Source of the DNA: Psammoneis japonica
Lineage: Eukaryota
Reading direction: 5' to 3'
Assembly: GCA_008632985.1 (NCBI GenBank)
Contig: QPGO01000134.1
Location: forward strand, 1 to 64,000
Length of the DNA: 64,000 nucleotides
The notes beneath the pieces were generated by a model. The model was not told where the DNA came from and made no database searches. It saw only the letters and a program-made list of their open reading frames with translations. A program made the translations under genes and the position numbers. Of this stretch, positions 1 through 27,539 are shown in pieces (the first letter of the stretch is position 1; each line of letters begins with the position of its first letter).

Positions 1-439
1 CTTGAAAGTGTTAATTTGAGAATTGGGAGGTTAATATGATGTAATGTTGAATATGATAGTCATTCAACCAAATTCAGAGTACTCTAAGTCCTCACTGTAA
101 CCGTTCATAAGTAACGGCAAGCACCATACAACATCCACTGCAGCTTGAGATGACTTGATTGACAAAAAGGACAATTGTGTGTGGGAACCGAGAAGAGACC
201 CGATCAGCACATCGCTGATCCGGGGAACTTCTAAAACGGCCCCTTGAATGTCTACAGCAATGCGCCAGTTAAAACACACATGTGTCAGAGAGCGAGGGCA
301 CACACTGTCATGGAGCGTGCGCGTGCCTGTCTTGTCCACTCTTCCACTCGTGGTGCAAGAAACACACACACCATTGGAGCCACTTGGCTCAAACTCAAAA
401 CTGGATGCATGCGAAGAAGGGAGCGCAGACATTGGGAAG

Positions 440-1215
440 AAACCCTCAACTCCAATGTGGTGCCATGCAGCGAGCGTCAATCCGCTCAACAATGTGTGGT
501 GTGCTCGCAGCACTGAAACAACCCTGTTCTTGGTGCGGACTTGTGCAATTCGAAGCGGGCCACTGAAAGCTCAAGCTTCCAGCTTCGACAGATTTGCAAA
601 CTCAATCAGTGCATCTTGTCCATCTGGACAATTGCAGGAATGGTGCTTTGCATTCTGTCCTTGTGCATTCTTGTTGACTGGCACTTGAGGGTTGGCTTGA
701 ATCGCAGCAAGATGGGGGCAATCCTCAGCAGATCCAAAATCATGTCATGTTGGAACACCAGAGCTCCACTTGAAATGCCCACAGACCTTGAGTGGAAGCA
801 TTGCAGTGCATGAGATGCAGTGGCAAGGGCATTGTCCACTGTCCCTTTGGCCTGTTGAACATTCAAAGGAGGGTCGGCAACAACCACAGTGCACAAAACA
901 TTGGCTGCGGTCTGGTGCATTCATTCAGAGAGACAGCATTGGCTGCAGGATTGCGAGACATTGTCAGAGCAGCAATGCCCATGCCCACTTGATTCAGCAA
1001 CATTTGAAACTCCCAACCAACAAACTTGCCGCCATTGTCATGGATGCATCGATTTGGTCCAGGACAATGAGCTGATCAAAGGTTGCAAAATTTGTTTGCA
1101 ACATGCTGAGAAATCTTGTTGTCAATGCGCGCAAGCTTGGTCAATCCAGCAAAGGCATCAATGCAGGTGAGGGCACTGAATTTGATCTCTTGAACTTGAG
1201 TTGGAATCTTCCAGG
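440..1215 (-). mobile_element. Decayed Ty3/gypsy element, integrase core and C-terminal part (left fragment, split by the copia insertion)
   Basis: Minus-strand translation resembles a gypsy integrase: W-KIPTQVQEIKFSALTCIDA...CIHDNGGKFVG...MHQTAANVL...VDNALATASHAL...GALVFQHDMIL. It has stops and frameshifts and is TpA- and CpG-poor. The left end is approximate. Confidence 0.8.
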
Positions 1216-1491
1216 TGACAGAAAATGAAGGCAAATGGCAAGAATTCAAACAATGACTCCTTGCTGCTGTCTAAATGGCAGATGAGTCTCCGCTCAGAGA
1301 CCGTTGCAGGAGCCGAAAGACGTGTGAGTCGGTGTGATCGGGCTGCTGTTGTTGTTCTTGTGAGCCTTGTGGCTTGAAAGCAAACTGCATCGCGCGTGAA
1401 CGCGCGGAACTAAAGCACACAAAACTGTGCACGGCAAACTAAACAGCGCGCGACACTTCGCGCGCACCCAAATCCTGTTCAAATCCTGTCA
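1216..1491 (-). repeat. 3' LTR of the copia element (TpA-mutated copy)
   Basis: Colinear with 8045-8320, without indels and with 13 substitutions. It is preceded on the element strand by a purine-rich tract. Confidence 0.97.
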
Positions 1492-4400
1492 CTCCCCAGT
1501 TTGCTTGAGGAGCCACAGAAACAGATTCGACTTCGGATGGAATGAAGTTCCAGAACATGAGGGGGTGGAGAAGGTCCCAGATTTGGGAGCAACCCCAATG
1601 CTTGCTGAGAATGTCAGCAGGGTTGCGGGAGCCTTCGATGAAGTGGAGCTCAAGGCAACCAGAGGCAATTGCCTCGCGCACACGGTGGAACGACAGTGCG
1701 GTGTGTCGCTTGTGTAACTTGGAGTGCGGGATGGTGGCACTGTCTACAACTGACTTGTTGTCACCAAACATGTAACTAACGTTGCGGATCGGGACACCAA
1801 GGCAGCGCAGGGTGATGCGCAGGTCGACAATCTGCTCAACACAAGTCCTTGCGGCAACAAATTCAGACCCGCAGGTCGCAGTCTCCACGGTGGCTTGTTT
1901 CTTAGAGAACCAATCAGCCGGGAATTTGTTGAGGAAGTGGAGCATTCCCATGACAGAGCGTCCGGTGAGCATGCAATGGCACAAGTTTGCATCGACGCAG
2001 TGGGTGGCAGTGACGAACTTGCCAAGGGGCGGTGGAGCGTCCTTCGGGATCATCTCTTCTGCTTCACCACACACGGAATGCATCCATTCACAGGCCGGAG
2101 CAGGGAGATCCGAATGGTTGGGCTCTTCCGTGTGAACGCGGAGAGCACCGTGTCGCATCTTGGAGAGGTGCCCACAGACGCTTTGGCACGATCCAAGTGG
2201 CCTTGAGGGGCGCAGCTCGGAAGCTAGAGAGTGACATGACGGCCGTGGCAATGTCAATTCGACCAAGGGACACTGCCCATTGGAGTGAGCCAACAAGAGA
2301 CTGGAACTTGTGAATGCCATCGGGTCCCAGCAGTTCGGAAGTGTCCAGTTCGGGGTGGTCACCCTTCTCTAGAGGTGACAGGGGTTGGTGGCAGGTTTCT
2401 CCCCAAACAGTCGGGCACAGCTGTCGACCATGCGCTCGATGTACTTGCGCGGAGACAGGCACAAGGTTCCGTCGGGTTCCCGGGAAAAGTCGCAACCCAG
2501 ATGGAACTCAATGGGTCCCGTGCCCTTGAGCTTGAACTTGTGCTTTTCTGTGAGAGTGTCGACGAAAGATTGAGGGTCCTTCATGGCAATGGCAAGGTCA
2601 TCCACATAAACGGCAATGCATTCACAGTGGTCGCCGTTCCTGCGCATCCAAATGTTGGGTTCTGTGCGGCAGGGGAAGAAGCCTTCAGCTCGCAGGCAGT
2701 CGGCGAAGCGCTCGTGCCAGCGGAGACCGGAGCTGCGCAGTCCATGCAGTGCCTTGTGGATGACAAGGATGTGTCCTTCGAGTTTGCCGAACTCGGGTCC
2801 AGCTGCAATGTAAAGCTTCTCCTTGGTGGTGGCTTCAAGGTGGGCATTGCCAATGTCGGTGGCCCATGTCTCCAACTCGTTGAGTTCGGCCAGGAAAATC
2901 ATCAGCCGAAGGCCACGGAGGGAGACTGCTCCGGAGTGGACACTGTCGACAGGTACGTCCGTGAGGTGCCCGTCGGCTACGAGTCGTGCCTTGTGGCGAC
3001 CGTCGTGTTTCACGTCGTACACTGGGTGCACTCGGATCTTCTTGTGTCCCGCAGGAGGAGTGGAAGACTTGAAGGGCCCGCAGTCATGGAAGACTTCGCA
3101 TTCGTCGAGTTGGTCCATCTCGAGATTAGTTGCATCTCCCCACTTGCGGTTGCCGTTGTGTTCGTCTGGTGACATGGCGTGTTTGTAGTTCCGGGGAACT
3201 TCGCATCCATGCTTGCAGCGAGGTGCAGTGCGGAAGGAGCGAAGCTTGGCTTGGTTGGCCATGCGAAATAGCTTCTTTTGGTGCCTCGCGATGGTGCGGA
3301 ACCGCTTCCAGCCATCCGTGTCGAGGAGTCCATTCTCTCGTGCATAGATGGCACAGGTGACAGGGTCGTCCTTGGCGATGATGGCAAGAGGCTCGGACGT
3401 GATCTCCCCACTTTCCCATTCAAGCATGATGTTGTAGCTGGAGCCTTTCCAGGTTGGGTCATGAGGCTTCAGAGGTCCTTCGTGTGACACGATGCATCGA
3501 AATTTCCAAATGGTGGTGTCTTCGTCTTCTTGCTCAATGTGATTCATGATGTCATTGCAGGCAAGGACTTCCTCGCATTCGTCATTGTTGACAGAGCAGA
3601 CGAACTTAGTGAGCTCGGGATTGCCGTTCACTTTCCATTCGTGGTCTTCGATGGCCTTGACGATGCGAGCTCTGTGGCGTTGTCCGTCCTCTTGTGGCTG
3701 CATGAGGAAGGTACGTCCAATGATGTCTTGCGGATCGAAAACTGGCATCTTGGGTGTCCTGATCTCCCCATCAGGAGAGTCGACGGGGTTGTCGTCATGG
3801 CGAGATTTGATGATGGGTTCAGGTGGCTCCCCATCAGGAGGATCAAGATGCAGGTTTCGAACGGCGGGATCGGGGGCAGCAGAGCGGACGTTGGACCGGT
3901 GGAGGATCTTCTGAGTCTCGTCAGATAGAATCTTGAAGGTCATCTGGTGGCCGACGTGCTCAGCAATGCCAACGAAGCGTCCACGCAACTCACGGGATTC
4001 GGACGGCCAATCGGAGTCATCGAGGTGGAAGTGCACGGGTTCCCACCAGTGAAAGCGAAGCAATGGGCTGATGTCCAGGGTGGAGCCAGTGAGAGTCTCG
4101 AGGGGCATGCGCCAGTGGAGACGTGGGGACGCTGCATGGTTGAGTGTGAAGCATGCGCACATGAGCGCCAGCAGCCATGCATGGGCGGGCGAACCAAAAC
4201 GATCCATGACAGTGTTCGTCATGCGCTTCACGGTCTGGTGTCGACGCTCGGCAAAGTTTTGGTGTTGCTGGTGAGGCTCACTTTGCCAGCTAGAGATGAA
4301 GAGGGCACGTAGGATCCCGAGCACTTTGTTGCTGATCTCAACTTGAGCACGGTCGCTGGTGAGTTTGGATGGGGCGCCACGTTCGCGGATCTGATCCTCG

Positions 4401-7105
4401 AGTGTGTTGACAAACTCTTTGTCCGTCTCAGTGCCGCAGACGTCAGTGACGGTAGACTCGGTGCCAACAAACAGTTGGGCGCTGGTGCAGCCAGAGTCGA
4501 CGGCCGGGGTGTCGGCACAAACGGTGTCAGTGGCGACAGGCTCGTTGCGGCGGTGCACATTAAGGGCGGGGTTGGGTGATTTGCAGGCCTTGCGAAGGTG
4601 TGTGCCGGCGGGCATGCGGGCGCACTGCGTGGTGCAGTCAAAAGTACGATGGACCGTGTCGGCAGGTGGGAAGCCAAAGCAAGGCCGAAGAGACTCGAAG
4701 GGGGGGTCCTTGGGCTGTGCAGTGCGCTCCGGAGGTGGAACGGCATCGCCCTGGGGGCCAATTGCATGCAGATGACACTTGCAGAACACGTCGTCGTTCG
4801 GAATGAGGTGATCATCGAGGGCGGACGCGTGATCGGCAGACAAGGAAGTGGACATGATGGTCTCGTTGACAACGACACGATGACGGCAGTTGCCGCATTC
4901 GTCAAATGGGTTGGCAGTGGGATCGTCCTGCAGGTCAGAGATCGCGTCGCACCACTGGTCGTCGTCAGTGACAGAGTGATCGAGGACGGAAGGGTCCCAT
5001 GTGTCATCACCGGTGAGGATGACATGGGGCAGGGTGTCCCATTCGGCATCAGTGTGGGGTCGCATGGCAACACAAGGCAGGCCAGCCTTGATGTCAATGG
5101 GGATGACACAGCCATCAGGAGTGGCAATGCGTTGCAAGCCGTTGGGCACCTTGACAGAGCGGTCGTTGACATCCTGTTTGCACCATTCGAGCTGGCCGCA
5201 GGAATGGATGGTCTTGCCCTTGCCCGTGCATGCGCACTGATGGAGGATGGCGATGACGGGACCACGCTGGGTCTCAATGACGGCACCAGCGGTGACAATG
5301 GGGATGTCCACCAATTGATGATCGTCAATGCCCTGAACATCGACTTGGCGAGAGGTGCGTGCAATGATGCGAACGTCGTCGCCAGCAATGCCGCCGTTGG
5401 CCCCACGATCGACTAGAGCGCCAGTGCGTGTGGAGCGATGAGCAGAGGCAGAGTGAATGACATTGTGGTTGTCAACGCGGCGGCAAGTGCGGCCGTTAAG
5501 TTCTGTGTCATCTGCAGAAGCTGGCGGGGCAGAGGAAGCGGCGGATGGCCCCGGTCGACTGGCATTGGGGGCTTGGTTGGGAGACAACAGACGTTGCAGA
5601 TCACCGGGTGGCAGTGGCTTGCGCTTGGTGAGGTGCGCCAGGATGGGATCATCCGAAGTGGTGTCCACATGTGGAGCGGAGTCACCAGAGTCAGCAGGAG
5701 TCGTGTTGGACAAGTTGACATCACCGTCACTCCCAAGGCGTTGGTCGTGAAGGTTGGCCGCAACAGACTCATGGTGGTTGCTGGCTCGCGGGTTGCGGGG
5801 AGGTGGACAAGAATGCTCAAGGATGATCGCCTTGGAGGAATCGGGCAACGAATCCCAGAGCCGTTGGTGGTCGGGAGGGAGACGTCTCCATTGGACACCG
5901 GTGAGGCTGGGACCGCGGGTGCAGGCAGCATTGGCTTGAAGGACGTCAACGTCGCTGTCAATGTCACAGAACACATCGTCGGACGGTTCCTCGGAGTAGA
6001 CGGCGTGTGCGTGTGTGGCGCGTCGGGGAGCTCGAGGTGTCGTCTTGGGTTGAAACGTGCTGTCGCACTGAGCTGCCGCGGAGAGGAGCAAGCCACAGCA
6101 TTGATCGCATGTGAGGCTCTTGCCACTCTGCGTACGATGCTGATCAGCTTGGTTCTTGACAGCACGGAGTTCCTCGACAGGGTGCACGGCATTCTCGAGC
6201 ATGACGCGCTTCTGTCCTTCAGAGAAGTGGTCGCTGGCCGGGATGAGTGCCTCGTGCTTGCGCAACTGATCTTGCCAATGAAGGATGAACCCGTGGGTCG
6301 GACCTTTCCAAGTGCCATCACCAAGACGCGCGGTGGTGAGGTGCGTGAGCAGGGTGGAGGACTCGACAGATGCGCGGGTGGAGGCAAGCGCGCACTCAGA
6401 CAAGGAGCGGCAGACGGTCTGTGCGTCAGAAGACCCCACATTTTCGCGAATGAGAGCCTTGCCCTTGTCGGTGAGAAGGATGCATTCGAAGACGGCGAAC
6501 ATGTGCTTTTGCTGTTCAGCAAAGAGCAGTTTGTCTTCAGGGCTGGTCGGTTTGTACGACGAGTCTAGAACGCACTCGACGTCTTGGGCACGGGCTTGTG
6601 CCACAAGTGAGGTGTGCCAAGTGTGCCACTGCTTGTCGGATTTGAGAGCCGTGAAAGCAGTGGGATCACGCTTGATGCCTCGCTTGAAGTCCCGCACTGG
6701 GTCGCATGCCTTGGTCGGGTTGGTGACATGTGGAGGTGCAAGGGGTGAGCTGCCGATGGACACAGAAGACATGCAGTCGGGGCTGAGGCGGTGGGCAAGG
6801 AACTCGTCATGCGTGAACAAAGAGGAGTCATTGGCAACGTCAAGACCTTTGTGTGCTTTGACAATGCACAGACTGACCAGTGCTGCTAACATGTTCTTGT
6901 AACCACGGGGCAAAGGGATCACATTGGTGCCGTTGTCGCACTCAAGCGAGTCGATTTGGGACGGCATGAACGTGAACAGTTCCTGATGCGAGTCCGTGCC
7001 GTCTTGGGCCAAAGCCAAACGAAGAGGACTCCCAGCACCTTGGGCAAGCACGGTTCCAACCACGTGCTCGAAACCATCGGTTTGTTGCTGACGAGTGAGA
7101 ACCAT
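1439..7105 (-). pseudogene. Copia gag-pol polyprotein (gag, aspartic protease, integrase, RT, RNase H), hypermutated with about 2 frameshifts near 2380 and 2190
   Basis: Motifs: ALVDRGANGG (protease), SDRAQVE and QNFAERR (integrase), HKARLVADG, DIGNAHL and YVDDL (RT), SKKQATVETAT, FGDNKSV and NPADILSK (RNase H). Covered by ORFs 2369-7135, 2088-2495 and 1439-2362. Confidence 0.95.
1492..1503 (-). promoter_or_regulatory. Polypurine tract (plus-strand primer site)
   Basis: The element strand reads ...AAACTGGGGAG immediately before the 3' LTR TG. Confidence 0.7.
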
Positions 7106-8030
7106 GGCAGACAAAAGTGGTGTCAGGACAATCAATTCTGGCTGGGAAGAGAAGGTGGACTCGAAACTTGGGTGAGAATGGACTTGACTTGAAACAGACT
7201 TGACTTGAAATCTTGAACTGTCTTGAAATCAGAAGTCGCCGGGCTTTGTCATCCCGTTCGTTGTCAAGTGCTAAACTTCCCATCCGGTCCGTAGAGTTGT
7301 GCCGGCACGTCCGAACCCGCAGCTGGCGGCACTTTGGGTTGCTTGCGAGCGGAGCAGCGGGTTGTAAACCCCTGCAGGCAAGCTGACTAGAGGTGGACAA
7401 GACCCCTGAACCGTTCTCATTTTGTGTCGGTTGGATTTCCCGATCAGGCTGGCCAGTTGACGCAGGCGTTGGGCGCTGTGGACGAACGAACAAACGCGGG
7501 AAAGCACCCTCGCCCCAACGCAGGCTGCAACCACGGCTGCTTGCTCTCACAGTCATCCTTGTGGACCTAGTAGAACTGTAGAGCACCAGCAGTCCGGGGT
7601 AGATCAGGTACAATGGACTCGGTGTGCTTGTAGAGTGGTGGCAAAACCGCAGTCCGAAGAGTGGGTACAGGTTCTTGGCCGTGAAGATGTGTATATATAT
7701 ATATGTCTTCAGCGACGAAGATCCTTGAATATGTAGGGTTCTTGACCGTTAACCGATGAATAGGTATATCAAGGGATGAGGATCAAGGATAGACTTGGAT
7801 ATGACCGTTGAATGTATGTCTTCAGCGATCAAAGGTAGTATAATCAATCCAGATATCCAGCGGTAAGGAGACTTGACGGTGACGTTAACTTCCTGCCGAT
7901 GCCCTGGTATTGAATGCGCGTAGACTTGCCGATGTATGTAGGATATATACGGAGGTCCACGTAGAATTGAAATAGCGTCGTTGGTAAATCAACGACGACG
8001 ATGGCGGTTGCTCAATGGGTTGACAATGAG

Positions 8031-8044
8031 CAAGACTGTTAATC
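8031..8044 (-). promoter_or_regulatory. Putative primer-binding site complementary to the anticodon arm (5' half) of tRNA-Asn(GUU)
   Basis: The plus strand reads CAAGA-CTGTTAA-TC and abuts the 5' LTR. There is no TGG (anti-CCA) type PBS. Confidence 0.6.
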
Positions 8045-8320
8045 TGACAGAAAATGAAGGCAAATGGCAAGAATTCAAACAATAACTCCTTACTGCTGTC
8101 TAAATGGCAGATGAGTCTCCGCTCAGAGACCGTTACAGGAGCCGAAAGACGTGTAAGTCGGTATAATCGGGCTACTGTTATTATTCTTGTGAGCCTTGTG
8201 GCTCGAAAGCAAACTACATCGCGCGTGAACGCGCGGAACTAAAGCACACAAAACTGTGCACGGTAAACTAAACAGCGCGCGACACTTCGCGCGCACCTAA
8301 ATCCTGTTCAAATCCTGTCA
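8045..8320 (-). repeat. 5' LTR of the copia element (TpA-intact copy)
   Basis: 276 bp with TG...CA ends, followed by the CCAGG duplication. It retains 15 TpA sites. Confidence 0.97.
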
Positions 8321-10060
8321 CCAGGGCTCAGCAAGAAGGTCAACTGCTGCTTCTGACCAGAGCTGACAGTGTGTGCTTGACGTTGTGGCAATTCTCTGCA
8401 TCCAGGACCAAGTTGCTTGAAATGTTGACATGCATCACAAACAAACTCATCACAACATCAATGCAATGCAGGGTGATGCAGGCAAGGGTGGGTGCTCTCA
8501 TGCAGATGTGTGACTCCACAATGGCCCAACACATGATGACAACAAGGGAGAACATCAGGCACAACAACACCGCTGGAACTCAAATCTTCCACACTCCAGG
8601 TGGGTCATTCAAATGAAAATGACAACAAATGAGAGGATGCTGGTTTAAGATCTTGGCCATGAATTGCTGAGGATTCTGCTGTTGCTTCTGATTCAACTGG
8701 GGGTCTTTGAACTGGGACTGCACAAACATGGAATGCTGGTGGGCTGTGGCTCAGGCAAGCCAAGAGTGCTTCTGCTGCAGTCATTGCCTTCATCTTGTTG
8801 AAATGCATTCTGACATGCGCCCAACCAGTGGAGCTGGCTCTTGCCTGTCAACTCATTGATGCAAGCAAGTGAAAACAAAAAGGTCACACATTGTGACAGT
8901 GGGTTGACTTGCGGCACCCAAAAACAAATGCAGTTGTGTGCAGCAGTCTGTGGAGGTTGCACGCAAAGGATGGCTTTGACTTTCTTCTTCTGCAGCTTGA
9001 CTCCATTTGGCATGAGCCAATGTCCCAGAAAATCCATCTCCTGAGCACACCATTTGCATTTCAACAGATTCACCTTCAAGCCATTCTCCTTGAGATGATG
9101 TGACACCTTGTTGAGACAAGAAAGATGAGAGTCAAAGCAAGCGTCAAAAGCGCCAATGTCATCAACACAGGCTTCAACATCCAAACCATGTGAAATCTTT
9201 GCAATGATGGACTGCACAATTCTGGAGCCAGCTTTAATCCCACAGCCATTCAACAGCACTGAAACCCACTGCAGGGAGCTGCAATTGTTGCTGGCTCCTT
9301 GCTTTCTTCATCCAGCTCCAAATCATGACAGAACATTGTGAGGTCAATCTTTGTGAAGAGCTTGTGTCCCGCTCTCCAATGCAGCACATCTTGAATCACT
9401 GGCAGAGGATGGACCATGCCCACTGCACACAGCCATCTTTCTTTGGAATGACTGCAGGTCCACATGGTCACAGTGCTCCCAGCTCCACCAAATGCTGCAG
9501 CTCCTTCTTGAATGTTTCTTCATTGGCTCAAGGAAAAGCAAAAGGTTTTGAATGACAAGGCACAGCATTTTCATCTGCTTCCAGGTGCACCTTTTCATGA
9601 GGTCAATGGCCCAGCATTCCATCAAACAGCCTTGAGCACTTCTCCAACACCGCCAGCAGCTTTGTCTTTTGTTCTTTAAGTCAAATGATCCAAATTTTGA
9701 ACAATGTCCAAAGGATCCATTGCTTCATGCTTGGCATCCAACACACAGCTGTCGCATCCGTTGTTGCAGCCACAACCCAACTCATCCTTGCAGTCTTCAT
9801 CAAACTCATCCATTTGATCTAGAGCCACACCAATTGCAGGACTTGGACCAATGGCAAGGTTCTGTCATTAGAATCTTGCGGTCTGGCCAGCACAGAGTTC
9901 TTGCATTGTGGTTCAAATGGGGTCCAATCTTGTCCAAGAAATCTCAACCCAAAATGATGTCATGCACACACGGAGCATCAAAAACATGAGCAACAATGCA
10001 GCCATCAACTCTTTTCATCTTGTTGAATGCTGGCAGCACAATGTTCTTTGTGTTGCCACA
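8321..10060 (-). mobile_element. Decayed Ty3/gypsy pol (protease, RT, integrase HHCC region), continuous with 440-1215
   Basis: IVLPAFNK...VFDAPCVHDIILG*DFL (protease), FTKIDLTM and EACVDDIGAF...GLKVNLLKCKW...DFLGHWL (RT), HHVLGHCG...CDACQHFK (integrase zinc finger). The reading frame joins across the duplication as EPW|KIP. Confidence 0.88.
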
Positions 10061-12965
10061 AAGCTGAAAATGCAATGAACAAGCTGTTCAACAATGTGAT
10101 TGACCACTCAGATGACATGCAGCACATCTGCTTCTGGCTTTCAGAGTTGCAAGATGTCATCTGTGAAGCAACAGGGAAACATGACGGTGTTGTTTTGGTC
10201 TTTGCACCAAATGCATCAGATGTTGCCCAGGTTGTGCTGGCACAACATTGGAGACAAGAAGCCAACTGTGGTGGGAAGGGTGCGCACAATGAATTCATTC
10301 CAAAAACAAAAACTTTTGTGAGTGAAAATGCTTGTGCAAGTGAGTTGATTGATTTGACATTGACCAATGCACAACAAAGAGAGAAGTCAAAAAGGTGACT
10401 CAGAAAGAGCTGTTTCCAAAAGCAAAATTCTTTGCCAAAGAAGACATGTCAAGTGGTCAAAAGGTGTCATGGCCAATGCGCAAGAATGCAGCTGGTGGCA
10501 GATTCAGCAAGCAGCAAGACTGGGCAGGAATGTGGGAAGACTGGGGGCAAAAAAGTGCATCTTCAGTGCAGTCAACACCAAAAAGGAACACCGTCACCCA
10601 GTCAATGATGAAGAATGTGACAAGTCACAAAAGTGCTGCAGAAAACATTGCCAAAAAGGTGTTGAAAATGATGCTGCCAACACAATGCTCTTTTGCACAA
10701 GTTGTGCTGACAGCAGAACAAGCAGAGGAAATCCATGGGCAAAAGCATGGCAGGAACAGAAAAGGAACAAGACAAAAAAATTAGAAAGAAGGGTGCTGCA
10801 CACCCATTGAAGAACCACCCTTTCCAACTCATGAGGACAAGACTGTGGAAATCATTGTGGGTGAAAAATTGGCCAACAAGGAAGCACGCACATGGCTCTG
10901 CAACAATGCACTGAAATTGATGAAGAGCGCTGTGGTGTGGAGAAAGTCAGGAATCAGCAAGGCTGCAGAGCTCCCTGTTGCAAACAACAAGGCTCTGGGG
11001 CTGTTGTGATGTTGGAAAACTGCTGGAAAATTGGGAAGCACAAGGCCATGAAGGACAAGAAGATTTGAGAGGGAGATGTTGCTGGAGATGATGATGAGAA
11101 CAACAAAGAAACCCCGGCGCCTGTGTGCAACGCCAACCAAGCAAAACAGCACAACTTGTTGAGAGATGCAGGAGCACAGCAGTTCAACATGCTGTGTGAG
11201 GAGGTGAAGGAAGACAGGGCAAGCAAGCCAGGTGTGCAGCTCAACACAGGGTGCAGCAATGACAACAAGAAGAAAAGTGATGAAAAAGGCAAGAGTGCAC
11301 CAACCACCAAAAGAAAGGGCACAAAAGGTGGCAAAAACACAAACCAAGCTTGAGCTTTCTGGCAATGACAAGGACAACATGGAAGAGAAAATGGGAAAAG
11401 ACAACAAAGAAGAAGACAGTTCAAGTGAAGATGAACATGGTGCACAAAAATCCACACCAGTCTGGCAAAGGAACCGTGGTGGTGCCCATTGAAAGCCCAA
11501 AATGATGCACAACAAAGTGGTGAATTGGCAATCATTGACAACTGTGCACACAATGCATTGCACTGTTCAAATTGCACACAAATGCCAACACAAAATGTCA
11601 CAATAAAGTTGGTTTCAAGGGGGGCCATCAGCTTGTTTTTTTTTTCACATCTTTTCCGGGTTTTTCCACATTTTTGATGGGTCGTGACAGAAAATTCATG
11701 ACACAAGCATGAGTGACAATGACGACGTTCACGATGAGTGGTGAGTTGCAAAGTGTCACCTCACAAGGGACACTCATTGGTTTCATCATCGTGACACAGT
11801 GCAGATTGATTTGCGTGCTTTTGTCCCTCGTGCCACTGGGCCAATTTTGAGAGATGGCATGACAGCCGTCATTGTTGTGCTTTGATTGTGGTGCCTGATG
11901 CTCTCATTTTTGCATGCGATCAAACAATTTTTACTGGGACAGAGGGTGGGCACTTTGATGGAGAAAACAGGTGGCTGTTTCACAATGGGCAGACTGGGGC
12001 AGACCCCGTGGCAATGAAATGTTTGTCTGTCACAGTCATTGGGTTTTCACCATGCAAACAACTGGCCATCTTGAATCTGTCATGGTGTTAAATTGTCACC
12101 CATGAAACAGTTAAAAAATGCTGTGAGACACCCCACACGCGCTCTGATGCACCAGCCAGGGTGCACTGTGGCAAGGAAAAAAGTGCTTCTTTCCTTTTTT
12201 TGTTGACACTGAACCACTGGTCAAAGGGGTCAGCAAGCTCCTTCATTTCTGCCACAGGCAGTGGAGTTGATGCTTTTTTGCCCTCATCAAAGCTCTCCAA
12301 CTCTGTCATGCTGTCCAGTGTGGCGTCTGCTCCCAGTTGGCACCTGCTCCACACTCGCAACTGAATTTTCAGAGATGTGCCACCAAGATTCAACAGCACA
12401 GCACCTCTCCATTTTGACTGCTTCTCTGAGTTGCCCAAGAGCTGCAGTCACTTGCACCGACCAGTGCGAGGTTCGTTCTCACTGGCAAGGGCACGAGCGC
12501 AGAAGTTGTGCTTCTCTGGATCTCACAGCACTTGTCACCCCAGCTGCAAACGCGTGCATCATTTTCACCCCAGCTTCTCAGATCATCTTCCAATGAAGCC
12601 TTCTGAGGCAGCGGCTTCATGCTCTCGAGGCCCAATTGACATTGGGGCCCAAATGCTGCAGACTAGTCTTTGGTGCATGCGGCTGCCTTTCCATCTCCAA
12701 GATTGGGATTAAAAAAGGAGAGTTCTGCAGGAATCACAGCGAACATTGTCCCCACCACAGGGTGCGTCCGTTGCTCTCCAGCAGAAGTCCTTCCGCTGAC
12801 AACATTCCAAAGCACTGATGTTGTCGGCAAGCACCGTGCGGCGCAGCACTTGCTTTGGATGAGCACTTGAGAAGTCATTGGCAGGTGCTTGGGCACAACC
12901 TGGTTTTGCGAAGCAACAGCGGGAAACCAACAACAGAGGTTGACCGACCGTCAACCCATCCACGC
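10060..12965. mobile_element. TpA/CpG-depleted decayed repeat region with unidentified ORF remnants (probably TE-derived)
   Basis: Broken plus-strand ORF remnants (e.g. KELFPKAKFF...W...KRNTVTQSM) and minus-strand remnants at 11800-12960. TpA is almost absent. I do not recognise the family. Confidence 0.5.
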
Positions 12966-12982
12966 CAAGTAGATTTTTTTAT

Positions 12983-13547
12983 CTAGAGCCTGACAAGTGC
13001 CTCCACTCTGCGCGATGGCATGTCTTGTTGCGGTTTTGAAGGACGAGCAAGGACGCTGTTCGGAAACAAGTCACCGACGGCTGTGGCGTCATTGTGGCAC
13101 ACCTCTCGTTCTGCATCTGTGTAGAACTTGTGAAACGCTGCTTGTTTCATGGGGACAAAACGTCCTCTGTCTTGAGACAACAAATGCTCGGCCTCTTTGG
13201 TGACGCGTAGCAACTTGTTGCCATATGCCATATCCGCCAAGTTACCCAGCACAAGTGCGCCCACGACGATGGGTACGCCAAAACTGGTGGTGGCTTGCGT
13301 CCGGCAATTTGTGCCATGGTCGCTCCAGTCACGAGGGTTGCCCAAGCCGTCCCATAAATCTGCAGCGTGTCACGTGCTCTGGCTACTTGGACAGCCATTT
13401 GTACTTCTCTCTGGAGCATCATTCGTCGCGCAACTTCATCTTCAATGCTGGATCGAATCTTTTGAAACTTTGACGACCCTCCACATCGTCGTCTTGCTGC
13501 TGCCCAGTGCTTTGTTTTCCGACTTGCTTGCTGTTTGAACCTCCCAT
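12983..13547 (-). CDS. Plasminogen receptor KT (PLGRKT)-like membrane protein; two 1-nt frameshifts, probably assembly errors
   Basis: MGGSNSK N-terminus, then RRMMLQREVQMAVQVARARD...VPIVVGALVLGNLADMAYGNKLLRVTKEAEHLL, which resembles the PLGRKT family. Frames are restored by one extra base in a G run and one in a T run. Confidence 0.7.
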
Positions 13548-14281
13548 GATGAGCTGCAAAGCGCCACAGTCTGTGATGTGAGGTAGCGTGTACTCGTAGC
13601 GTTGGCCGAATCCAGAATAGGGTGATGTGAAGGTGTTTTGTTGTTCTTTGGCTATCGGCGGGAGCTGGCGCAGTAGAATTCGAAGCTGTTCGCCTGTTCG
13701 CGGGTCACCAAAGATGCGCGCAGTGAAGCCACCAGGCAGAATGGCATCCATTGATGCCGTATCATAATTACTAGAGAGTAGCTACTCTAGAGTGGCATTG
13801 TGGTGGTAGTAGAGAGTATAGCCATGAGGCACTCCTGCAAAAGTGCCGCACTCTAGCTCCAGTGGCTCTCTCGAGGGCGGTCCACATCACCTTTGACTTC
13901 AGTGAAAAATGATTTCAAGCTTGCTTGTAATTTCTTAGGACTGTTCCTTATGGACATTCGGTTATCTTCTTCTCATTTCATTCAGCATTACACGATGTCC
14001 TGGTTAATGATCTCCTTCTTGACTTTTAACCGAAGCAAAATTTCGTAGCATTGTAAATGCTCCAGGTAGAAACACTGCTGAAGGTACATGCATGTGCTCG
14101 TGAAGAGAGAATCGTCCATTCTTCGATCGCACCATCGTACCAGTAGTGCATCCGCCGCTGTCCAAAATGTCTAGACAATGTTACAAATGTACGAGTAGTT
14201 TTATATCTATTTACTTTAGAGTTCAAACCGGATAGGTTTGCCATGGAAATCCGCTTTTCGAATCATCGACGACTCTCCTCG

Positions 14282-15430
14282 CTACGCCATTTTGCGCTTT
14301 TTCCCGCTTGCTTTTGAACCCCGCACCCGCTTCATGATAAAAGTCAGAATGAAAAGAACAATTGTTGCAGGAATGACCATGGCTGACACGGTTTGTACCT
14401 TGACCGAAAGCGCGGAATTGCTCTTTGGGAACGGCTTGTCCGGACATTGTTCAACGTTGAGGAATTCACAGAGCGGCTCCCACCCTTCCTTGACGCTGTA
14501 TTCCAACAGTCGGTCAGACGGAATGATTTCCCGTACACGTTCATTATGAAGTTCATAGGAAGCTATTGCTGCTTCTTTATTCTGGTCAGGAAGGGGGAAG
14601 GGGGCCGTCAAGAAAGAATCATCGTGGTTGATCATGCTAAAAAGCCATCGGTAGTATTTGTTGAGTTTCTTTGCATGCCATAGGAATCTAAAGCGACGAG
14701 TCGGCACCGTAATGGCCTTGGTGAGCATATTCCACGAATTGAACCAAATATCTGACGTTGCCCGCGTTGTCAAGATGAATTTTGATTCAGGATACTGCTC
14801 CATAATTTGTTCAAAGTAAAGAGCCGTCGGTAAGTCCATAGTGGCGGTAAAGCCGTGATCCACAATAAGATCAAAGTCTGGAGACATCAAGGAAGCTTTA
14901 TTTGCTTCAATAGACGGCTGAAACACTTTATCCGTCCACATGTCTAGAATATCCCGACTCTCGTACATGTGTTGAGTATGCAACGTGGGGTAGCCTAATT
15001 CTTCCAAGGCCAACGCCAACGAGTAGGTTCCTGTTCGCCCATACCCGACACCAATTACCTTGAGAGTTTCAGCACTGTCTTGCTTACGAGTTGAAAGTTC
15101 CACACCAATCAATCCGAGTGCCGGACGCACCACTCGTGTCTTGAGAAAATCTTCGGCAAACCAGAAACCATGAGACGATCCTACGACAACGCCAGAGCAT
15201 ACATCACGAACGATCTCTGCAAAGTCAGGCATGCTATTGCTTGTGAAAAGGCGGGGAAAGAATTGAGTTACAGTAGTGGAGCTGCTGTAAACGGATGATG
15301 AGGTTGTGTTGCTGATGTCGTTCATATTTTTTTTTTTATGATACGTGGTTGACAACAGGAAGTTGACAGCAAACGCATCAGCATACGAACTCCAAGTGCG
15401 TGCGGAAGTGCGTGGATGATGGGTTCGCAA
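14282..15430 (-). CDS. Sulfotransferase-family (P-loop) protein with C-terminal TM helix
   Basis: LKVIGVGYGRTGTYSLALALEELGY, DLPTALYFEQIMEQYPESKFILTTR, IPSDRLLEYSVKEGWEPLCEFL...PFP. The start codon is uncertain. Confidence 0.85.
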   Translation of the reverse strand: MRTHHPRTSARTWSSYADAFAVNFLLSTTYHKKKNMNDISNTTSSSVYSSSTTVTQFFPRLFTSNSMPDFAEIVRDVCSGVVVGSSHGFWFAEDFLKTRVVRPALGLIGVELSTRKQDSAETLKVIGVGYGRTGTYSLALALEELGYPTLHTQHMYESRDILDMWTDKVFQPSIEANKASLMSPDFDLIVDHGFTATMDLPTALYFEQIMEQYPESKFILTTRATSDIWFNSWNMLTKAITVPTRRFRFLWHAKKLNKYYRWLFSMINHDDSFLTAPFPLPDQNKEAAIASYELHNERVREIIPSDRLLEYSVKEGWEPLCEFLNVEQCPDKPFPKSNSALSVKVQTVSAMVIPATIVLFILTFIMKRVRGSKASGKKRKMA

Positions 15431-15677
15431 GACTGACTGGCAATCAAGCGAATCGTGTCAATCCAGTCGCGCTTCTCCAAATCATGTAGAAGCTACGTAA
15501 ACCAATACTGAACAGGTTATGTTTATACTTTTATTTTTGTATTAGTGAATGTGGAGATAAAAATCATTGTGAGTCCCGAGTGACAACGGACAACCATCAA
15601 CAATCACAATCCATCCTTCGCTCGCATGACATTGCGTCTGTTGATGTTGAGTTGACAAGGTTCCCGCGTTTTCAACA

Positions 15678-16193: not shown

Positions 16194-18309
16194 AATGACA
16201 CAAGATGCCATGAGCTGATTCTTGGAAATTGGCATTACATTCCTGGTTTTTCACGCACGTCAGCGGCGATCAGAAGGGACGGAAATGGGAATTACGAATC
16301 ATCTGCAGCACACAGTAACTTTGAGTGCAGGTAGTAGAAGTAGTATGTAGTAGGTTTTATACCAAGACGAACCTATGTGGCGGATCGCGTTTTGATCAGG
16401 TGAAACAGAGTCGGTCAGGATCAAAGAGTCTCATATATTCGCGATCTCTCTTTTTTTCTCCCTCTCTCTACACCCCTCATGGGCAGTTTGAAAAAATGAA
16501 TGCGGCGAGACAATGCAGGAAAAAGCAAGAGGGAAACTGGAGTTGAATGCTGTAGCTCTATTCATCCTTGTCACTTGCACCAAGATTAAGGTCACGGCAT
16601 GCCCTGATATCACACATAAGAAGATAGATGACATGTTGTCGGTAGCGTAGCTAGAGGCGCTGCTGTATTATAGTCGTCTTTCCTTTACGCGATGCACGCA
16701 CAACCTATTTTGGGAGTGGACAGACGGATGGAAAAATTCTGGAGAAATGAGCGAGTCGAAAAGTCAAAATGCTGCAGCTGACCTCAAAACAAGGATGAAG
16801 TCGATGCATCCTGAATCATCAAGCAAGCAATCTACCCTCACTCTAAATCTCAGTGTGGAGATCAGAACAGGGCAAACCAGAGGCACCGTGGGAGCTGGCA
16901 CATGCCTGTGCTGAGTGGAGCTCCAGCTTGCTGCTTGCCATTTGAACACATGTGCCCTGTCTGTGTGTCATTGCATTTCTGCTCGGCCACTCATTGCAGC
17001 ACCTGGCAAGGTGGAGCTGCACAGCAGAAATGGTGTTTGGTTGACAATTTGCAAAGGGGAGGTCCAAACACAGCAAAGATGGCCACAGCTCCAGCAGCTT
17101 GAAGAGCGTTCAGCCATGACGCCCGTTGCTTGTCTGCACAACCTTTGTCTCTCACCAGCTCCCATCCATCACATCTGGCTGGGAACTCCCAGGTTCTCAT
17201 GTCTGTTGGGCAGCTGTCAATTGAAGCTCTGCCTGCCAAAACAGAGAGGCTTGTTGTCAAAGGCATTGGCAAGGTGTTCTGGGCACTTCAAGCCATGGAT
17301 GAAAGCAAAGCTCACATCCACAGACTTGTGTTGCTGCTGCTTCTGCACACCCAAAGCCAAAGTCCACTGGCTGGTGGTGCCACACAGTCTTGCCATGCAG
17401 CCTTTCCTGGAAACACCTCCAATTTTTCTCTTTTGAAAGCACATCAATGAGCAGGGGATGAAGCATTTTGTGTCTTGTGCCAGCCTTGCTTCCCATTGAT
17501 TGACACGTGTGAGTGCTCTTCTTCTCACATTTGAGCACAATGTGTTGGCAGCTTGCTCATTGAGGGTCTTGAGAAACTGATGCACAGCTTCTGTTGAATG
17601 TGACTGCCACTTGGAGCTGTCTTTTTCCACGTGCCAACCTTTTGACAAGCCTTTTAACAAGCCTTTGCCAGCAATGGCTTTGCATGGTGTCAGGGAGAAC
17701 ACCATGTTGACTGGCTGCACTTGTCTTGCTTGGTGTGAAAGAAGCACACTGTCCAAATCAAAGTGTCACCTGGGGTCCATCAAAGACTGTTTTGATGTCC
17801 TCTGCTGGCAGTTGTTGCCCCCCACCACTGCCCTCTGGAGGCACAACAGTTTGGAAACAAGTCAAGTCCAGCTGCTGCTGTCAGGGACAAGATGATGTGG
17901 TGGGACCACAACACCACAAGATGAACCTTGCAATGCCCAACCACAGTTCTCAAAGTCACACTTGGGGCCCACCAAAGACCACCAATGCCCTCTGCTGGCA
18001 GTTGTCAGGTTGGTTGGTGCTGTCATGGGGCCCTCATGCTCTGGAGGTTGGCAGCATCAGGTTCATTCTAAAATTGTCATGGCATTGTTTGTGTTCACAC
18101 CTGACCATGCACAAAATGACAACATTGTGCACCACTTCTGGTGTGCATGTGACCTTTGACACACAAAAAGCAAATGCAAAACAAACAACAAGAGTTGACA
18201 AAGGGTCCCCCTCCATTTGTTTTGACCTCAGCAAAGCACAAAAAAATGCACACACACTTGTCGCTGCCCATTTGGCCAAATTTGAGCAAAAAACAAACAG
18301 CAAATGACC

Positions 18310-19480
18310 CACCTCAAGAGCTGCAGCTGGACATTGCAAGGCAGATTTTGTGGTGTTGTGGCCCCATGTCACCTTGTCCCCAACAGAAGCAGACTTGAGC
18401 TTCCAAGTTCCAAACTTGACAGCACCAACAACCAACTTAACCACAGCAAGCTGAGAGCATTGGCAGTCTTTGGTGGACTCCAGGTGTGACTTCAAGAACT
18501 GTGGCTGGATGTTGCAAGGTTGATGTTGTGGTGTTGTGGCCCCATGATGTCACCTTGTTCTCAATGCCAGGAGCAGACTTGAGCTTCCAAACTCAAGAGT
18601 CCAAGGACCCCAAGGACAGCACACCAGCCAACCCAACAACAGCAAGCTGAGGGCATTGGCAGTCTTTGGTTGCCCCCTGGCATTGCCCCTGGAACTGTGG
18701 TTGGATGTTGCAAGGTCAATGTTGTGGTGTTGTGGCTCCATGTCACCTTGTCCTCAACAGAATGAGCAGACTTGACTTTCCAAACCCCAGAGTGCAGGGA
18801 TCCCATGATGGTGCCAACCAACCCAACAACTGCCAGCAGGTTGCACTGATGGTTTGGTTGCTGGTGGCCCCCATGCAACACTTCAAGAACTGTGGCTTGG
18901 TGCTGCAAGGTTGATCTTCCGACCCAACAACAGCAAGCTGAGGGCATTGGCGGTCTTTGGTTGCCCCCTGGCATTGCCCCTGGAACTGCAGTTGGATGTT
19001 GCAAGGTCAATGTTGTGGTGTTGTGGCTCCACGTCACCTTGTCCTCAGCAGAATGAGCGGACTTGACTTTCCAAACCCCAGAGTGCAGGGATTCCATGAT
19101 GGTGCCAACCAACCCAACAACTGCCAGCAGGTTGCACTGATGGTGTGGTTGCTGGTGGGCCCCATGCAACACTTCAAGAACTGTGGCTGGGGTGCTGCAA
19201 GGTTGATCTTGAAGTGTTGTGGCCCTGTGCCACATTGTGCCCAACACAGCTGCAGACTTGAGCTTCCAAACTCCAGAGTCTGAGGACCCCGTGACAGCAC
19301 CAACCAACCTGACAACAGCAAGCTGAGGACACTGGTGCTGTCTGGTGTGAACCCCAGGCAATGCTTTAAGAGCCATGGTTGAGCATTTTGCAAGGTCAAT
19401 CTTGTGGTGTGGTGGCCCCATGCCACATTGTCCCCAACAGCAGCAGACTTGAATTTCCAAACTCCAGAGTTGCTCATTCA
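18310..19480. repeat. Tandem array of ~195-bp units, with an inverted partial copy at ~17760-18055
   Basis: The anchor TGCAAGG recurs at ~18335, 18512, 18708, 18903, 18998, 19195 and 19388. The stretches 18630-18920 and 18921-19210 are near-identical. Confidence 0.85.

Positions 19481-22185: not shown

Positions 22186-22186
<1 letters not shown>

Positions 22187-22245
<59 letters not shown>
22187..22245. repeat. (AAC)n microsatellite, ~19 units
   Basis: Perfect trinucleotide run, seen directly. Confidence 0.95.
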
Positions 22246-27530: not shown

Positions 27531-27539
27531 GCCCTTCAG

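Follow-up and report, generated by a model that had tools for sequence, protein, structure and literature searches.

A Ty1/copia LTR retrotransposon and the transposon-derived islands around it, in the 64-kb stretch of DNA analysed here (the window), carry clear marks of a real, fast and dinucleotide-specific process, which has converted TpA to TpG or CpA and left genes untouched. These marks are probably best explained by in-place hypermutation that disables mobile DNA, likely through a TadA/ADAT2-like deaminase, as in the chlorarachniophyte Bigelowiella natans (bioRxiv preprint, 2026, 10.64898/2026.01.13.699255). The process is reconstructed from standing sequence, in which TpA is nearly all lost from five islands that make up a third of the window, whereas genes have an observed/expected ratio (O/E) of about 0.56.

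The element occupies 1216-8320 and is coded on the minus strand. Repeat search and alignment delimit LTRs of 276 bp each with TG...CA ends, and a 5-bp target-site duplication, an RVT_2 domain and a single long gag-pol ORF complete the features of a Ty1/copia carrier (Table 1). The ORF has its ATG near 7105 and is locally out of frame at ~2150-2385. Because the long RVT_2 ORF lies on the minus strand, the window-left LTR, which bears the TG and CA states, is the 3′ LTR, in agreement with the original prediction that the 3′ LTR is the derived copy. The polyprotein has 1333 homologs, the best 55-68% identical; the three top-scoring ones are fused double copies without close kinship to the element. 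No near-identical protein outgroup was present among the 120 homologs listed of the 1333, and the viral contig collection yielded neither a relative of the polyprotein nor a match to a 30-nt stretch of the LTR.

Table 1. Positions of the element, its parts and the TpA-poor islands in the window.
Feature	Position	Strand	Details
Target-site duplication CCAGG, left copy	1211-1215	.	Same 5 bases at 8321-8325
Target-site duplication CCAGG, right copy	8321-8325	.	Sequences flanking the LTRs
3′ LTR, window-left, hypermutated	1216-1491	-	3 TpA remaining; LTR alignment
Hypermutated body	1492-7565	-	gag-pol ORF (RVT_2) and ORF-proximal 460 nt of leader
Spared part of 5′ leader	7566-8044	-	39 TpA, O/E 1.12
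5′ LTR, window-right, unmutated	8045-8320	-	15 TpA, O/E 0.81
Older host island, left part	271-1215		No TpA between 271 and the LTR; CpG lost as well beyond ~590
Host island, right part	8326-13200		16 TpA in 8321-13200; CpG O/E 0.1-0.3 to ~12450
Degraded RVT_1 reverse-transcriptase remnant	8696-9307	-	YxDD box is CVDD
Second island, TpA- and CpG-void	16850-23880		TpA O/E 0.00-0.13; CA and TG ~1.7-2.2
Third TpA-void island	26700-28230		Flanked by two DUF4116 genes
Fourth island, TpA-void and CpG-void	44065-46000		
Fifth TpA-void stretch, start only	63600-64000		Continues past the window end

The LTRs of one element are identical at insertion. Compared base by base, the two LTRs differ at 13 sites with no indels: TG in the copy at 1216 versus TA in the copy at 8045 at 10 sites, CA versus TA at 2 and TG versus CG at 1. 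This reproduces exactly the 10 TA to TG, 2 TA to CA and 1 CG to TG changes that had been predicted. All 13 differences are transitions (0 transversions) and, given the polarity, 12 are A:T>G:C; each of these 12 falls on TpA and yields TpG or CpA. The chance that at least 12 of 13 substitutions would be transitions at a TpA base is P = 6e-17. TpA counts are 3 in the 1216 copy and 15 in the 8045 copy, and CpG counts 19 and 20, as in the predicted ratio of 12 of 15 TpA and 1 of ~20 CpG changed (Fisher p = 6e-6). The predicted speed relative to background is likewise upheld by an indirect measure of rate, 12 of 15 TpA against one other change in the 276-bp LTR pair. Along the LTR the changes form two strand runs (P = 0.03). 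The differences are read from the assembly, none of the LTR positions being among the best 40 of 459 read-variant rows. Dating by LTR divergence is badly inflated here, with 4.7% apparent divergence against 0.4% without TpA sites.

The signature is not confined to the LTRs but extends through the body of the element, into the flanks and to four more islands. In the hit block (1216-7565) the TpA O/E is 0.14 and the CpG O/E 0.87, with CA at 1.51 and TG at 1.35. Across the window, 42 of 128 bins of 500 bp have a TpA O/E below 0.2 (88 TpA seen, 1286 expected), and the remaining bins have 0.56. Island borders are sharp to tens of bp, adjacent genes are normal, and the signature is confined to foreign or mobile DNA. 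About 97-100% of TpA has been converted in the older islands, where CpG O/E is 0.00-0.35, compared with ~80-85% in the young element. Among 73 island ORFs, only RVT_1 and a borderline DUF2368 reach the Pfam curated cut-off, and the recognisable mobile content of islands and element together is RVT_2 and RVT_1 only; a domain scan of the ORFs of the second island found no recognisable domain. Fragments resembling a 5′-nucleotidase at 23086-23657 were considered as a host gene hit in place and rejected, as they fall below the Pfam cut-off and a PDB search was empty.

Repeated sequences outside the islands behave differently. Gene duplicates with 77-90% identity show about as many transitions as transversions, ~10-22% TA-linked differences and normal TpA, and both a 306-bp tandem array and a 2.1-kb gene duplicate (90% identity) have a normal spectrum and normal TpA. 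Since duplicated genes in the window are unaffected, repetition alone is not the trigger. The idea of a process aimed at repeats is not supported by these data, nor by the target in B. natans, which is single-copy.

The direction of change can be read from tyrosine codons. Tyr is present in 80% or more of 69 full-length homologs at 37 alignment columns; of these, the window copy reads Tyr at 5, Cys (TGY) at 18, His (CAY) at 10 and Phe, Trp or Ser at 4, whereas three control homologs keep Tyr at 33/37, 34/38 and 35/37. The window copy retains 75-100% of other conserved residues. Tyr retention is 0.14 in the window copy; the lowest value found for those of the 120 listed homologs that offer 8 or more scorable Tyr columns is 0.73. 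The converted fraction is alike in Tyr codons (28/33, 85%) and LTR TpA (12/15, 80%). The motifs 'RWHERF' and GRHKARLVADGH were rejected as Tyr-to-His changes, His being the family consensus there. Metagenomic relatives point the same way, with a native TpA O/E of 0.40-1.06 in 78 of 79; the remaining contig (L040) has the same signature as the element, with a TpA O/E of 0.01 and His 10, Cys 3, Phe 4 and Tyr 1 at the Tyr columns. Together, the Tyr codons, the variants within the family and the TpA content of relatives confirm the predicted direction from TpA to TpG or CpA, rather than the RIP-like CpA to TpA, and the 18 sense A>G and 10 sense T>C changes at Tyr codons confirm the predicted action on both strands. 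Contig L040 also carries 4 Tyr-to-Phe changes, which are outside the TpA spectrum.

Other genomic copies differ from the window copy in which sites are converted and how, which points to independent, repeated hits. The Tyr codons at 1802-4, 3209-11, 4031-3 and 6254-6 read His or Cys here and have the opposite product in other copies. TA is kept in 100% (4155) and 90% (3168) of the depth of other copies, and at 4292, 3018 and 1778 TA is retained here with TG or CA in other copies. Cys occurs at 6254-6 in 12 of 12 contigs, and some mutated states are common to nearly all other copies; part of the mutation load of the body could thus have been inherited from a mutated source copy and not acquired in place.

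The surviving TpA sites are not a random sample. Only 4 of 37 have a 5′ A or 3′ T, versus 269 of 581 in genes (p = 1e-5), and TTAA accounts for 15 of the 40 surviving TpA in the old islands. The flanking base clearly matters, and on the composition of these survivors TAT contexts are converted first and TAA (TTAA) last. No strand-coherent editing tracts were found in the body or islands (TG/CA runs tests, z -1.3 to +2.3), and a count of runs by hand gave no obvious clustering in the order of Cys and His along the 28 converted Tyr codons. An APOBEC-type excess of G>A was not found, and both strands are involved.

Sequencing reads allow the TpA-void flanks to be compared with the assembly. Contigs built from k-mers of the public run X1 match positions 1-792 with 0-1 and 8421-12431 with 0-2 other letters each; they are in pieces of 0.45-1.3 kb at a depth of 55-83, and the flank pieces listed, 4.6 kb in sum, have a total of 4 other letters. 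Run X1 may be the source data of the assembly itself, and this agreement is then not fully independent. The window has T at site 1183, at a CpG, where the whole X1 depth has C, so the assembly and X1 are not letter-identical. Of the contigs listed for low-coverage runs, those lying inside 7641-8039 show 0-1 other letters over 254-399 nt, while those reaching below 7566 have ~2.5-3% (10/318, 14/564), a comparison based on a small sample of four contigs.

The first 755 nt of the element (5′ LTR and leader, 7566-8320) are untouched, with a TpA O/E of 1.00 and an intact (TA)6 at 7692-7703. At 7566 the TpA content switches sharply, within ~30-50 nt, and a 180-nt gap free of TpA follows. The two LTRs must have started out the same. 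The 3′ LTR and body are nevertheless equally converted and the 5′ LTR and 479 nt of leader not at all, which suggests that conversion took place in situ on chromosomal DNA, once the element had integrated. As identical LTRs were treated differently, targeting would be by position or chromatin state, and not by sequence homology alone or repetition. Conversion proceeds site by site on either strand. In the candidate chemistry a TadA/ADAT2-like deaminase would turn DNA adenine into hypoxanthine, which would then be read as G at replication. The natural substrate of TadA/ADAT2 is A34, which always follows U33, and the TpA rule may stem from this. DNA adenine deamination is our leading guess for the chemistry, and its function would be to inactivate silenced foreign or mobile DNA by mutation.

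Several other explanations bear on parts of this account. The sparing of the 5′ end would have a different origin if the whole element had been hypermutated and its 5′ 755 nt later restored by gene conversion from an unmutated copy, a reading that is compatible with in-place hypermutation. A recombination or gene-conversion junction accounts for the sharp switch at 7566 no less well than a chromatin border does, the other end of the spared block coincides with the end of homology at 8320, matching target-site duplications would be kept, and donors are abundant, as the low-coverage runs contain contigs with exactly the sequence of 7641-8039. However, the difference in divergence on the two sides of 7566 suggests, from four contigs, that the 5′ block is spared in most copies, and we consider restoration unlikely, with an appreciable minor chance of being correct. 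The same geography of a hit 3′ LTR and body with a spared 5′ LTR and PBS-proximal leader is predicted if, in the course of reverse transcription, the cDNA were edited by a deaminase of adenine in single-stranded DNA, an adenine-directed analogue of APOBEC3. In minus-strand DNA, the future 3′ LTR and body would stay single-stranded longest, while the 5′ LTR would derive from early plus-strand strong-stop DNA and the PBS-proximal leader would quickly become double-stranded. Moreover, minus-strand deamination should appear as element-sense T>C, which is the case for 10 of the 12 LTR changes, and the changes fall in the two strand runs. In the body, however, the 'wrong' direction prevails, with 18 sense A>G changes to 10 sense T>C, and unequal exposure would be expected to leave a graded pattern starting at the PBS, whereas the switch at 7566 is abrupt. 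The older islands are ~97-100% converted, symmetric for TG and CA and without strand-coherent tracts, and in B. natans, according to the main text of the preprint, this spectrum appears in situ in integrated DNA that is not retroviral. Editing of cDNA is hence quite improbable.

The in-place process could also act on the thymine of TpA, with a modified T mispairing with G, or through error-prone processing of a modified adenine. For example, a hydroxymethyl-uracil or base-J-like mark set by a TET/JBP-type enzyme would lead to T>C. TpA is self-complementary, so T>C and opposite-strand A>G are indistinguishable and the spectrum fits either; the term 'adenine-targeting' used in the original prediction goes beyond the sequence evidence. 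Dinoflagellate DNA has 5-hydroxymethyluracil preferentially at TpA, which favours the thymine side. Adenine deamination, in turn, gives the transition directly and has enzymatic precedent in TadA/ADAT2, and activity of amphioxus ADAT2 on DNA, as cited in the main text of the B. natans preprint (10.64898/2026.01.13.699255), also counts against thymine-side chemistry, which we hold to be improbable. A sequencing or base-calling artefact, in which a modification in silent islands makes TpA appear as TpG or CpA, might draw on the mismatch at site 1183 between the assembly and X1. Noisy, miscalled reads would not give contigs at 55-83x with so few other letters, the same codon carries different products (His versus Cys) in different genomic copies, the signature is present in the independent metagenome contig L040, and the B. 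natans events were, in the preprint's account, called from Illumina data; an artefact is very improbable. Lastly, without an outgroup two LTRs leave the direction formally open, and RIP-like or methyl-cytosine C>T at CpA/TpG could have made TpA in the 8045 LTR and adjoining leader of a natively TpA-poor element, fungal RIP making exactly CpA>TpA. This opposite polarity is refuted by the Tyr columns (conserved Tyr to Cys or His at 28 of 37 positions), the Tyr retention of homologs and the TpA content of relatives, which is 0.40-1.06 and not 0.14. In addition, abundant family contigs share the TpA-rich leader with only 0-1 differing letters over 254-399 nt, and the named homologs are from diatoms, not fungi, leaving a practically negligible chance for this reading.

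In-place erasure of TpA has several consequences. A TpA editor cannot create TAA or TAG, so mutated elements keep long ORFs and will be annotated as genes. Maps of TpA and CpA+TpG are a cheap way of locating silenced foreign DNA, and the LTR pair narrows the options for target choice, as the process would discriminate identical sequences 6.8 kb apart after integration. An enzyme with a TpA rule, if it is a DNA adenine deaminase, would be of interest to base editing. We read the case as adding a second lineage, apparently a diatom, and a further class of target to a defence that has only just been described, and such a second case, with diatom retrotransposons near saturation and a large share of the sequence affected, would make TpA erasure a widespread eukaryotic defence and not a curiosity of one alga. 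More tentatively, and with slightly less than even confidence, diatoms, and by extension a wide span of SAR, may own a chromatin- or position-guided A:T>G:C editor that acts in place to remove TpA from silenced mobile DNA, shapes one third of certain genomic regions and systematically spares the promoter-proximal 0.75 kb (5′ LTR and leader) of LTR elements. If true, this would be an ancient 'inverse RIP' without need for repeats or sex, and a natural base editor of adenine (or thymine) that follows a TpA rule in a double-strand context.

Among known systems, fungal RIP likewise disables mobile DNA through dinucleotide-specific transitions, dense and present on both strands, and leaves compositional islands adjoining normal genes. 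However, it works by C>T at CpA, which creates TpA, and the direction here is reversed. RIP also needs duplicated sequence, a sexual cycle and a DNA-methyltransferase-like protein, whereas in the window duplicated genes show no such change and the two LTRs, although identical at first, met different fates. APOBEC3 is likewise a case of deaminase-driven retroelement hypermutation with LTR-based detection, but it targets cytosine (plus-strand G>A) in GG/GA contexts, is strand-pure and is graded along the genome; the present changes are A:T>G:C at TpA, on both strands, and occur also in islands that are not retroelement-shaped. ADAR hyper-editing shares A>G with a preferred 5′ U, but its target is RNA, its edits form strand-coherent clusters and they are not limited to TpA. 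Any edit made in the genomic RNA would enter both LTRs, which here differ, and the original argument against such editing holds on that ground; coherent tracts are also lacking in the body and islands. ADAR is, furthermore, a metazoan family. Methyl-CpG decay gives the same products, TpG and CpA, and is also present in the older islands, but it is much slower here, as the young element has a CpG O/E of 0.87 versus 0.14 for TpA and the LTRs have 1 versus 12 changes.

The closest system is that of B. natans, where the integrated DNA of giant viruses and virophages undergoes TpA hypermutation; its description makes outdated the earlier statement that no system with this spectrum had been described (10.64898/2026.01.13.699255). 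According to the main text of that preprint, of the 231 de novo mutations seen in two integrated viral regions of Illumina-sequenced mutation-accumulation lines, 230 are A>G or T>C, all at TpA, and an ADAT2 homolog is proposed (10.64898/2026.01.13.699255). For diatoms or any other eukaryote, open-access PMC and bioRxiv yielded only this preprint for the same spectrum, and its main text does not contain 'LTR', 'retrotransposon', 'diatom' or 'other species' (10.64898/2026.01.13.699255). As far as the main text describes them, the two cases are alike in consisting almost only of A>G/T>C at TpA, giving TpG or CpA by strand, in being confined to foreign DNA with normal neighbours at orders of magnitude above background, and in a long-term trace in which TpA is low and CpA+TpG is high. 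TpA-poor coding sequences of B. natans are enriched in reverse transcriptase and DDE domains, in likeness to the present islands. The differences, on the same source, are that mutations arose de novo in clonal lines in B. natans and are deduced from standing sequence here, and that its targets are single-copy viral insertions in a rhizarian alga, compared with an LTR retrotransposon family and degraded transposon islands in an apparent diatom. The giant-virus region of B. natans is far from saturation (TpA Rho 0.45), whereas 80-100% has been converted here over a third of 64 kb, and the sparing of the element's 5′ end and the 3′-neighbour preference are features that appear in the present case.

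The element at 1216-8320 is a Ty1/copia-type LTR retrotransposon. The window contains a pair of 276-bp direct repeats (1216-1491 and 8045-8320), with TGACAG at the start and CTGTCA at the end of both repeats, and the minus-strand ORF between them contains an RVT_2 domain (E = 4.4e-26), the 8045 copy being the 5' LTR and the 1216 copy the 3' LTR. Thirteen positions distinguish the LTRs, all of them substitutions and none an indel: at 10 the 3' LTR has TG and the 5' LTR TA, at 2 it has CA against TA, and at 1 TG against CG. Base-by-base comparison thus reproduces every LTR count of the original prediction. TpA occurs 3 times in the 3' LTR and 15 times in the 5' LTR (CpG 19 and 20 times), and the probability of at least 12 of the 13 differences being TpA-base transitions under random substitution is 6e-17.

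Polarity is not derivable from the two LTRs alone, and an outgroup test was therefore needed. A search with the polyprotein returned 1333 hits, and the best homologues among the top 120 are 55-61% identical over long alignments, none being near-identical. The window translation was aligned with the 69 of these 120 that have 1750-2050 residues, omitting 51 shorter, longer or fused homologues (P0001-P0003 among them), and columns with tyrosine in at least 80% of the 69 were scored (n = 37). The window copy keeps Tyr at 5 of the 37, and has Cys at 18 (every codon TGY), His at 10 (every codon CAY), Phe at 2, Trp at 1 and Ser at 1. Three control homologues given the same treatment keep Tyr at 33/37, 34/38 and 35/37, and other conserved residue classes are 75-100% kept in the window copy. 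In a profile alignment of all 120 homologues, scored where at least 8 Tyr columns were covered, Tyr retention is 0.14 for the window copy versus a homologue minimum of 0.73 and median of 0.94. As TAY>TGY and TAY>CAY are TpA>TpG and TpA>CpA, the interior has lost TpA. This rules out a RIP-like CpA>TpA change in the 5' LTR, and the direction originally proposed, TpA to TpG/CpA, is correct. Both spectrum and direction are therefore clear, and the process is fast relative to CpG decay and background.

TpA loss extends well beyond the LTR. The block 1216-7565 (6350 nt) has 41 TpA, an observed/expected ratio (O/E) of 0.14, with CA at 1.51, TG at 1.35 and CpG still at 0.87. The element's insertion site lies in DNA (271-1215 and 8321 to ~13200) that is nearly TpA-free: the stretch from 271 to the LTR contains no TpA, and 8321-13200 contains 16. 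CpG O/E of this DNA is 0.07-0.3, and CA and TG are 1.6-2.5 times expected. Across the window, TpA O/E is below 0.2 in 42 of 128 500-bp bins (88 TpA versus 1286 expected from base composition) and 0.56 in the remainder. The process is confined to these islands of mobile DNA, whose borders are defined to within tens of bases. Pfam matches at or above the curated cut-off were found for 2 of 73 island ORFs (stop to stop, at least 90 codons). Reverse transcriptases carry a YxDD motif, and the RVT_1 remnant has CVDD at this position. At three borders (271-590, 12450-13200 and 23330-23880) the TpA-void zone exceeds the CpG-void zone by 300-750 bp, either because the mobile DNA there is younger or because the TpA process spills into adjoining DNA; at the remaining borders the two limits coincide within about 100 bp.

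Features of the window, and contigs of public sequencing run X1 aligned to the flanks of the element
Feature	Position	Strand	Remarks
Flanking 5-base duplicate	1211-1215 and 8321-8325		CCAGG on both sides
ORF between LTRs	2369-7135	minus	1588 codons from first start codon; 1619 stop to stop
Further TpA-void islands	about 16850-23880; 26700-28230; 44065-46000; from 63600
RVT_1 remnant	8696-9307	minus	29.8 bits, cut-off 29.6
DUF2368	12986-13300	minus	weak/borderline Pfam match; within TpA-void/CpG-retaining border zone
5'-nucleotidase-like	23086-23657	plus	weak match; overlaps TpA-void/CpG-retaining border zone
Unaffected repeat: duplicated DUF4116 gene block	24500-26650 and 28750-31150		2.1 kb; 90% identical; TpA-void island between copies
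Unaffected repeat: four 306-bp tandem units	41682-42899		86-90%; inside 721-codon ORF without known family
Unaffected repeat: two further duplicates			77-84% identical
Unaffected repeat: inverted fructose-1,6-bisphosphatase pair	37759-38586 and 40374-41267	minus and plus	73%; arms 72-75% complementary; normal composition
X1 contig	1-457		0 other letters
X1 contig	436-792		1 other letter
X1 contig	8421-9298		2 other letters
X1 contig	9479-9951		0 other letters
X1 contig	9953-11259		1 other letter
X1 contig	11236-11680		0 other letters, 1 gap
X1 contig	11830-12431		0 other letters

Loss of TpA removes TAA and TAG from every frame, and gene callers will over-predict in the TpA-void islands. Besides the genuine one, the hypermutated element has long ORFs of 278-394 codons at 2240-7228, spread over several frames of the two strands. 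The polyprotein frame itself is locally lost at 2150-2385 on the minus strand; the translation from ~2150 to a stop near 2368 resembles a frame-shifted family consensus. Compared with the window copy, other genomic copies have one extra base behind each of 2181, 2206 and 2383; the window copy therefore carries small indels besides its TpA changes.

Run X1 contains 83% of sampled words from 5500-15499, and its contigs were aligned to 1-14000 at a likeness of at least 85%. Near-exact k-mer contigs at a depth of 55-83 over the single-copy flanks are unlike the product of miscalled, noisy reads, an agreement that concerns the flanks, not the LTR sites, in a run that is possibly the assembly's own data. 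At site 1183, a CpG in an old island, the window has T (TG) versus C (CG) in all X1 depth (2 contigs, depth 113), which is either an assembly/run discrepancy or a strain difference. Over the element, summed X1 depth reaches 65,000-171,000 (14,614 contigs aligned), which marks a highly abundant family. Transitions predominate among the variant places (A>G 109, T>C 115, G>A 96, C>T 74; transversions total 55). Among the best 40 of the 459 variant places, which do not include the LTR sites, other copies have TA where the window copy has TG at 4155 (100% of depth) and 3168 (90%), and TG or CA where it has TA at 4292 (83%), 3018 (84%) and 1778 (69%); many differences are CpG versus TpG/CpA. At the conserved Tyr codons 1802-4, 3209-11, 4031-3 and 6254-6 the window and other copies have opposite products (His versus Cys), Tyr being still present in some copies at 3209-11, which indicates that the same ancestral TpA was struck independently in different copies, on either strand.

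The signature also appears in metagenome contigs, where a scan with the family alignment returned 79 loci. TpA O/E across the matched region is 0.40-1.06 in 78 of these. The exception is L040, a contig of 2766 nt whose protein is 58% identical to that of the window copy: its TpA count is 3 (O/E 0.01), and all 10 of the 1620 500-bp windows with O/E below 0.15 lie within it. At 18 conserved-Tyr columns L040 has His at 10, Cys at 3, Phe at 4 and Tyr at 1, while nine other loci keep Tyr at 15-29 of 16-30 columns. This is independent support for the signature being real. TAY>TTY would be a transversion, and the Phe residues may stem from a second mutational component or simply be natural variants. 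The feature is genuine and striking.

The process had been thought to be aimed at repeats, which is not supported: TpA O/E of the duplicated genes and the tandem array lies within the range of genes, and their substitution spectrum is ordinary. In these repeats transitions roughly match transversions or outnumber them by as much as 2.6-fold, and 10-22% of differences are TA-linked. Repetition as such does not select the target, and the process is independent of mere duplication. Nor is sequence homology the selector, since the process hit one LTR of the element and spared its identical partner.

The element's 5' end is spared. Together, the 5' LTR and 479 nt of leader (7566-8320, 755 nt) hold 54 TpA (O/E 1.00), including the only (TA)6 of the window, intact at 7692-7703. 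The switch is abrupt, with sites at 7568, 7571 and 7579 and the next below at 7388. We favour positional protection, e.g. of an active or open promoter-proximal region, with the 3' LTR counting as body. In listed contigs of the low-coverage runs X2-X4, those within 7641-8039 have 0-1 other letters in 254-399 nt, and those reaching below 7566 have 10/318 and 14/564; these four contigs hint that most copies have escaped mutation in the 5' block. We rank second a later gene conversion, with an unmutated copy as donor of the 755 nt, which agrees with the sharp border. Editing during reverse transcription, with the 5' LTR and PBS-proximal leader least exposed, is the least likely of the three, as the border shows a step and not a gradient, the body is struck on both strands, and older islands are saturated and symmetric.

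Conversion was alike in the 3' LTR, with 80% of TpA sites (12/15), and in the body, with 85% of conserved Tyr codons (28/33), which fits one post-integration exposure of 1216-7565. TG and CA outcomes are balanced (body 18 versus 10, p = 0.18; overall 20 versus 20 in window-strand terms), and runs tests found no strand-coherent tracts in body and islands (z -1.3 to +2.3, like genic controls), so conversion proceeds one site at a time and on either strand; the 12 LTR changes alone form two strand runs (P = 0.03). Surviving TpA with 5' A or 3' T number 4/37 in the element, 269/581 in genes (p = 1e-5) and 27/56 in the spared block, and TTAA makes up 15/40 of survivors in old islands. This suggests a neighbour effect, with TAT most mutable and TAA least.

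The process probably acts in place on chromosomal DNA and may serve in defence. Adenine deamination by a TadA/ADAT2-like enzyme is the leading candidate chemistry. Wobble A34, edited by enzymes of this type, comes after the invariant U33, and such an enzyme would give a TpA rule because its substrate follows U33. Thymine-side chemistry is also conceivable.

The core of the original prediction holds, but it now has a precedent. Full-text searches of open-access PMC and bioRxiv found a single matching report, a 2026 preprint on Bigelowiella natans (bioRxiv 10.64898/2026.01.13.699255), the main text of which does not contain the terms 'LTR', 'retrotransposon', 'diatom' or 'other species'. According to this text, 231 of 302 nuclear single-nucleotide mutations in mutation-accumulation lines fell in giant-virus and virophage regions, 230 of the 231 being A>G or T>C and all 230 at TpA. 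The integrated giant-virus region (186 kb) is single-copy and silent, and events were restricted to some lines. The 324 TpA-poor coding sequences are enriched for reverse transcriptase, endonuclease-RT and DDE domains, and an ADAT2 homolog is proposed as the editor. Rates were ~6e-7 per site per generation in hit regions and 3.5e-10 in the background (10.64898/2026.01.13.699255). As a rough check by hand arithmetic with these borrowed rates, about 1e5 generations would convert ~80% of TpA, and the LTR pair should gain well under one background change in that time, which agrees with the one non-TpA difference observed.

The window probably does not derive from B. natans. B. natans genes have 8 introns on average (PMC13746701), whereas ORFs of 350-720 codons that run without interruption and include complete domains are numerous in the window. 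Among the best 120 homologues of the window's serine acetyltransferase, the four that are organism-named are all diatoms (Cylindrotheca, Ditylum, Odont..., Amphora; 56-70% identity). B. natans is also described as having the highest (AC)n simple-repeat density among the rhizarian genomes compared (PMC13746701), and a TpA>CpA/TpG process acting on (TA)n could contribute to repeats of this sort; the window has no (CA)n or (TG)n of more than 5 units. The feature joins a kind described once, in 2026, and extends it to another lineage and to a target class not reported before.
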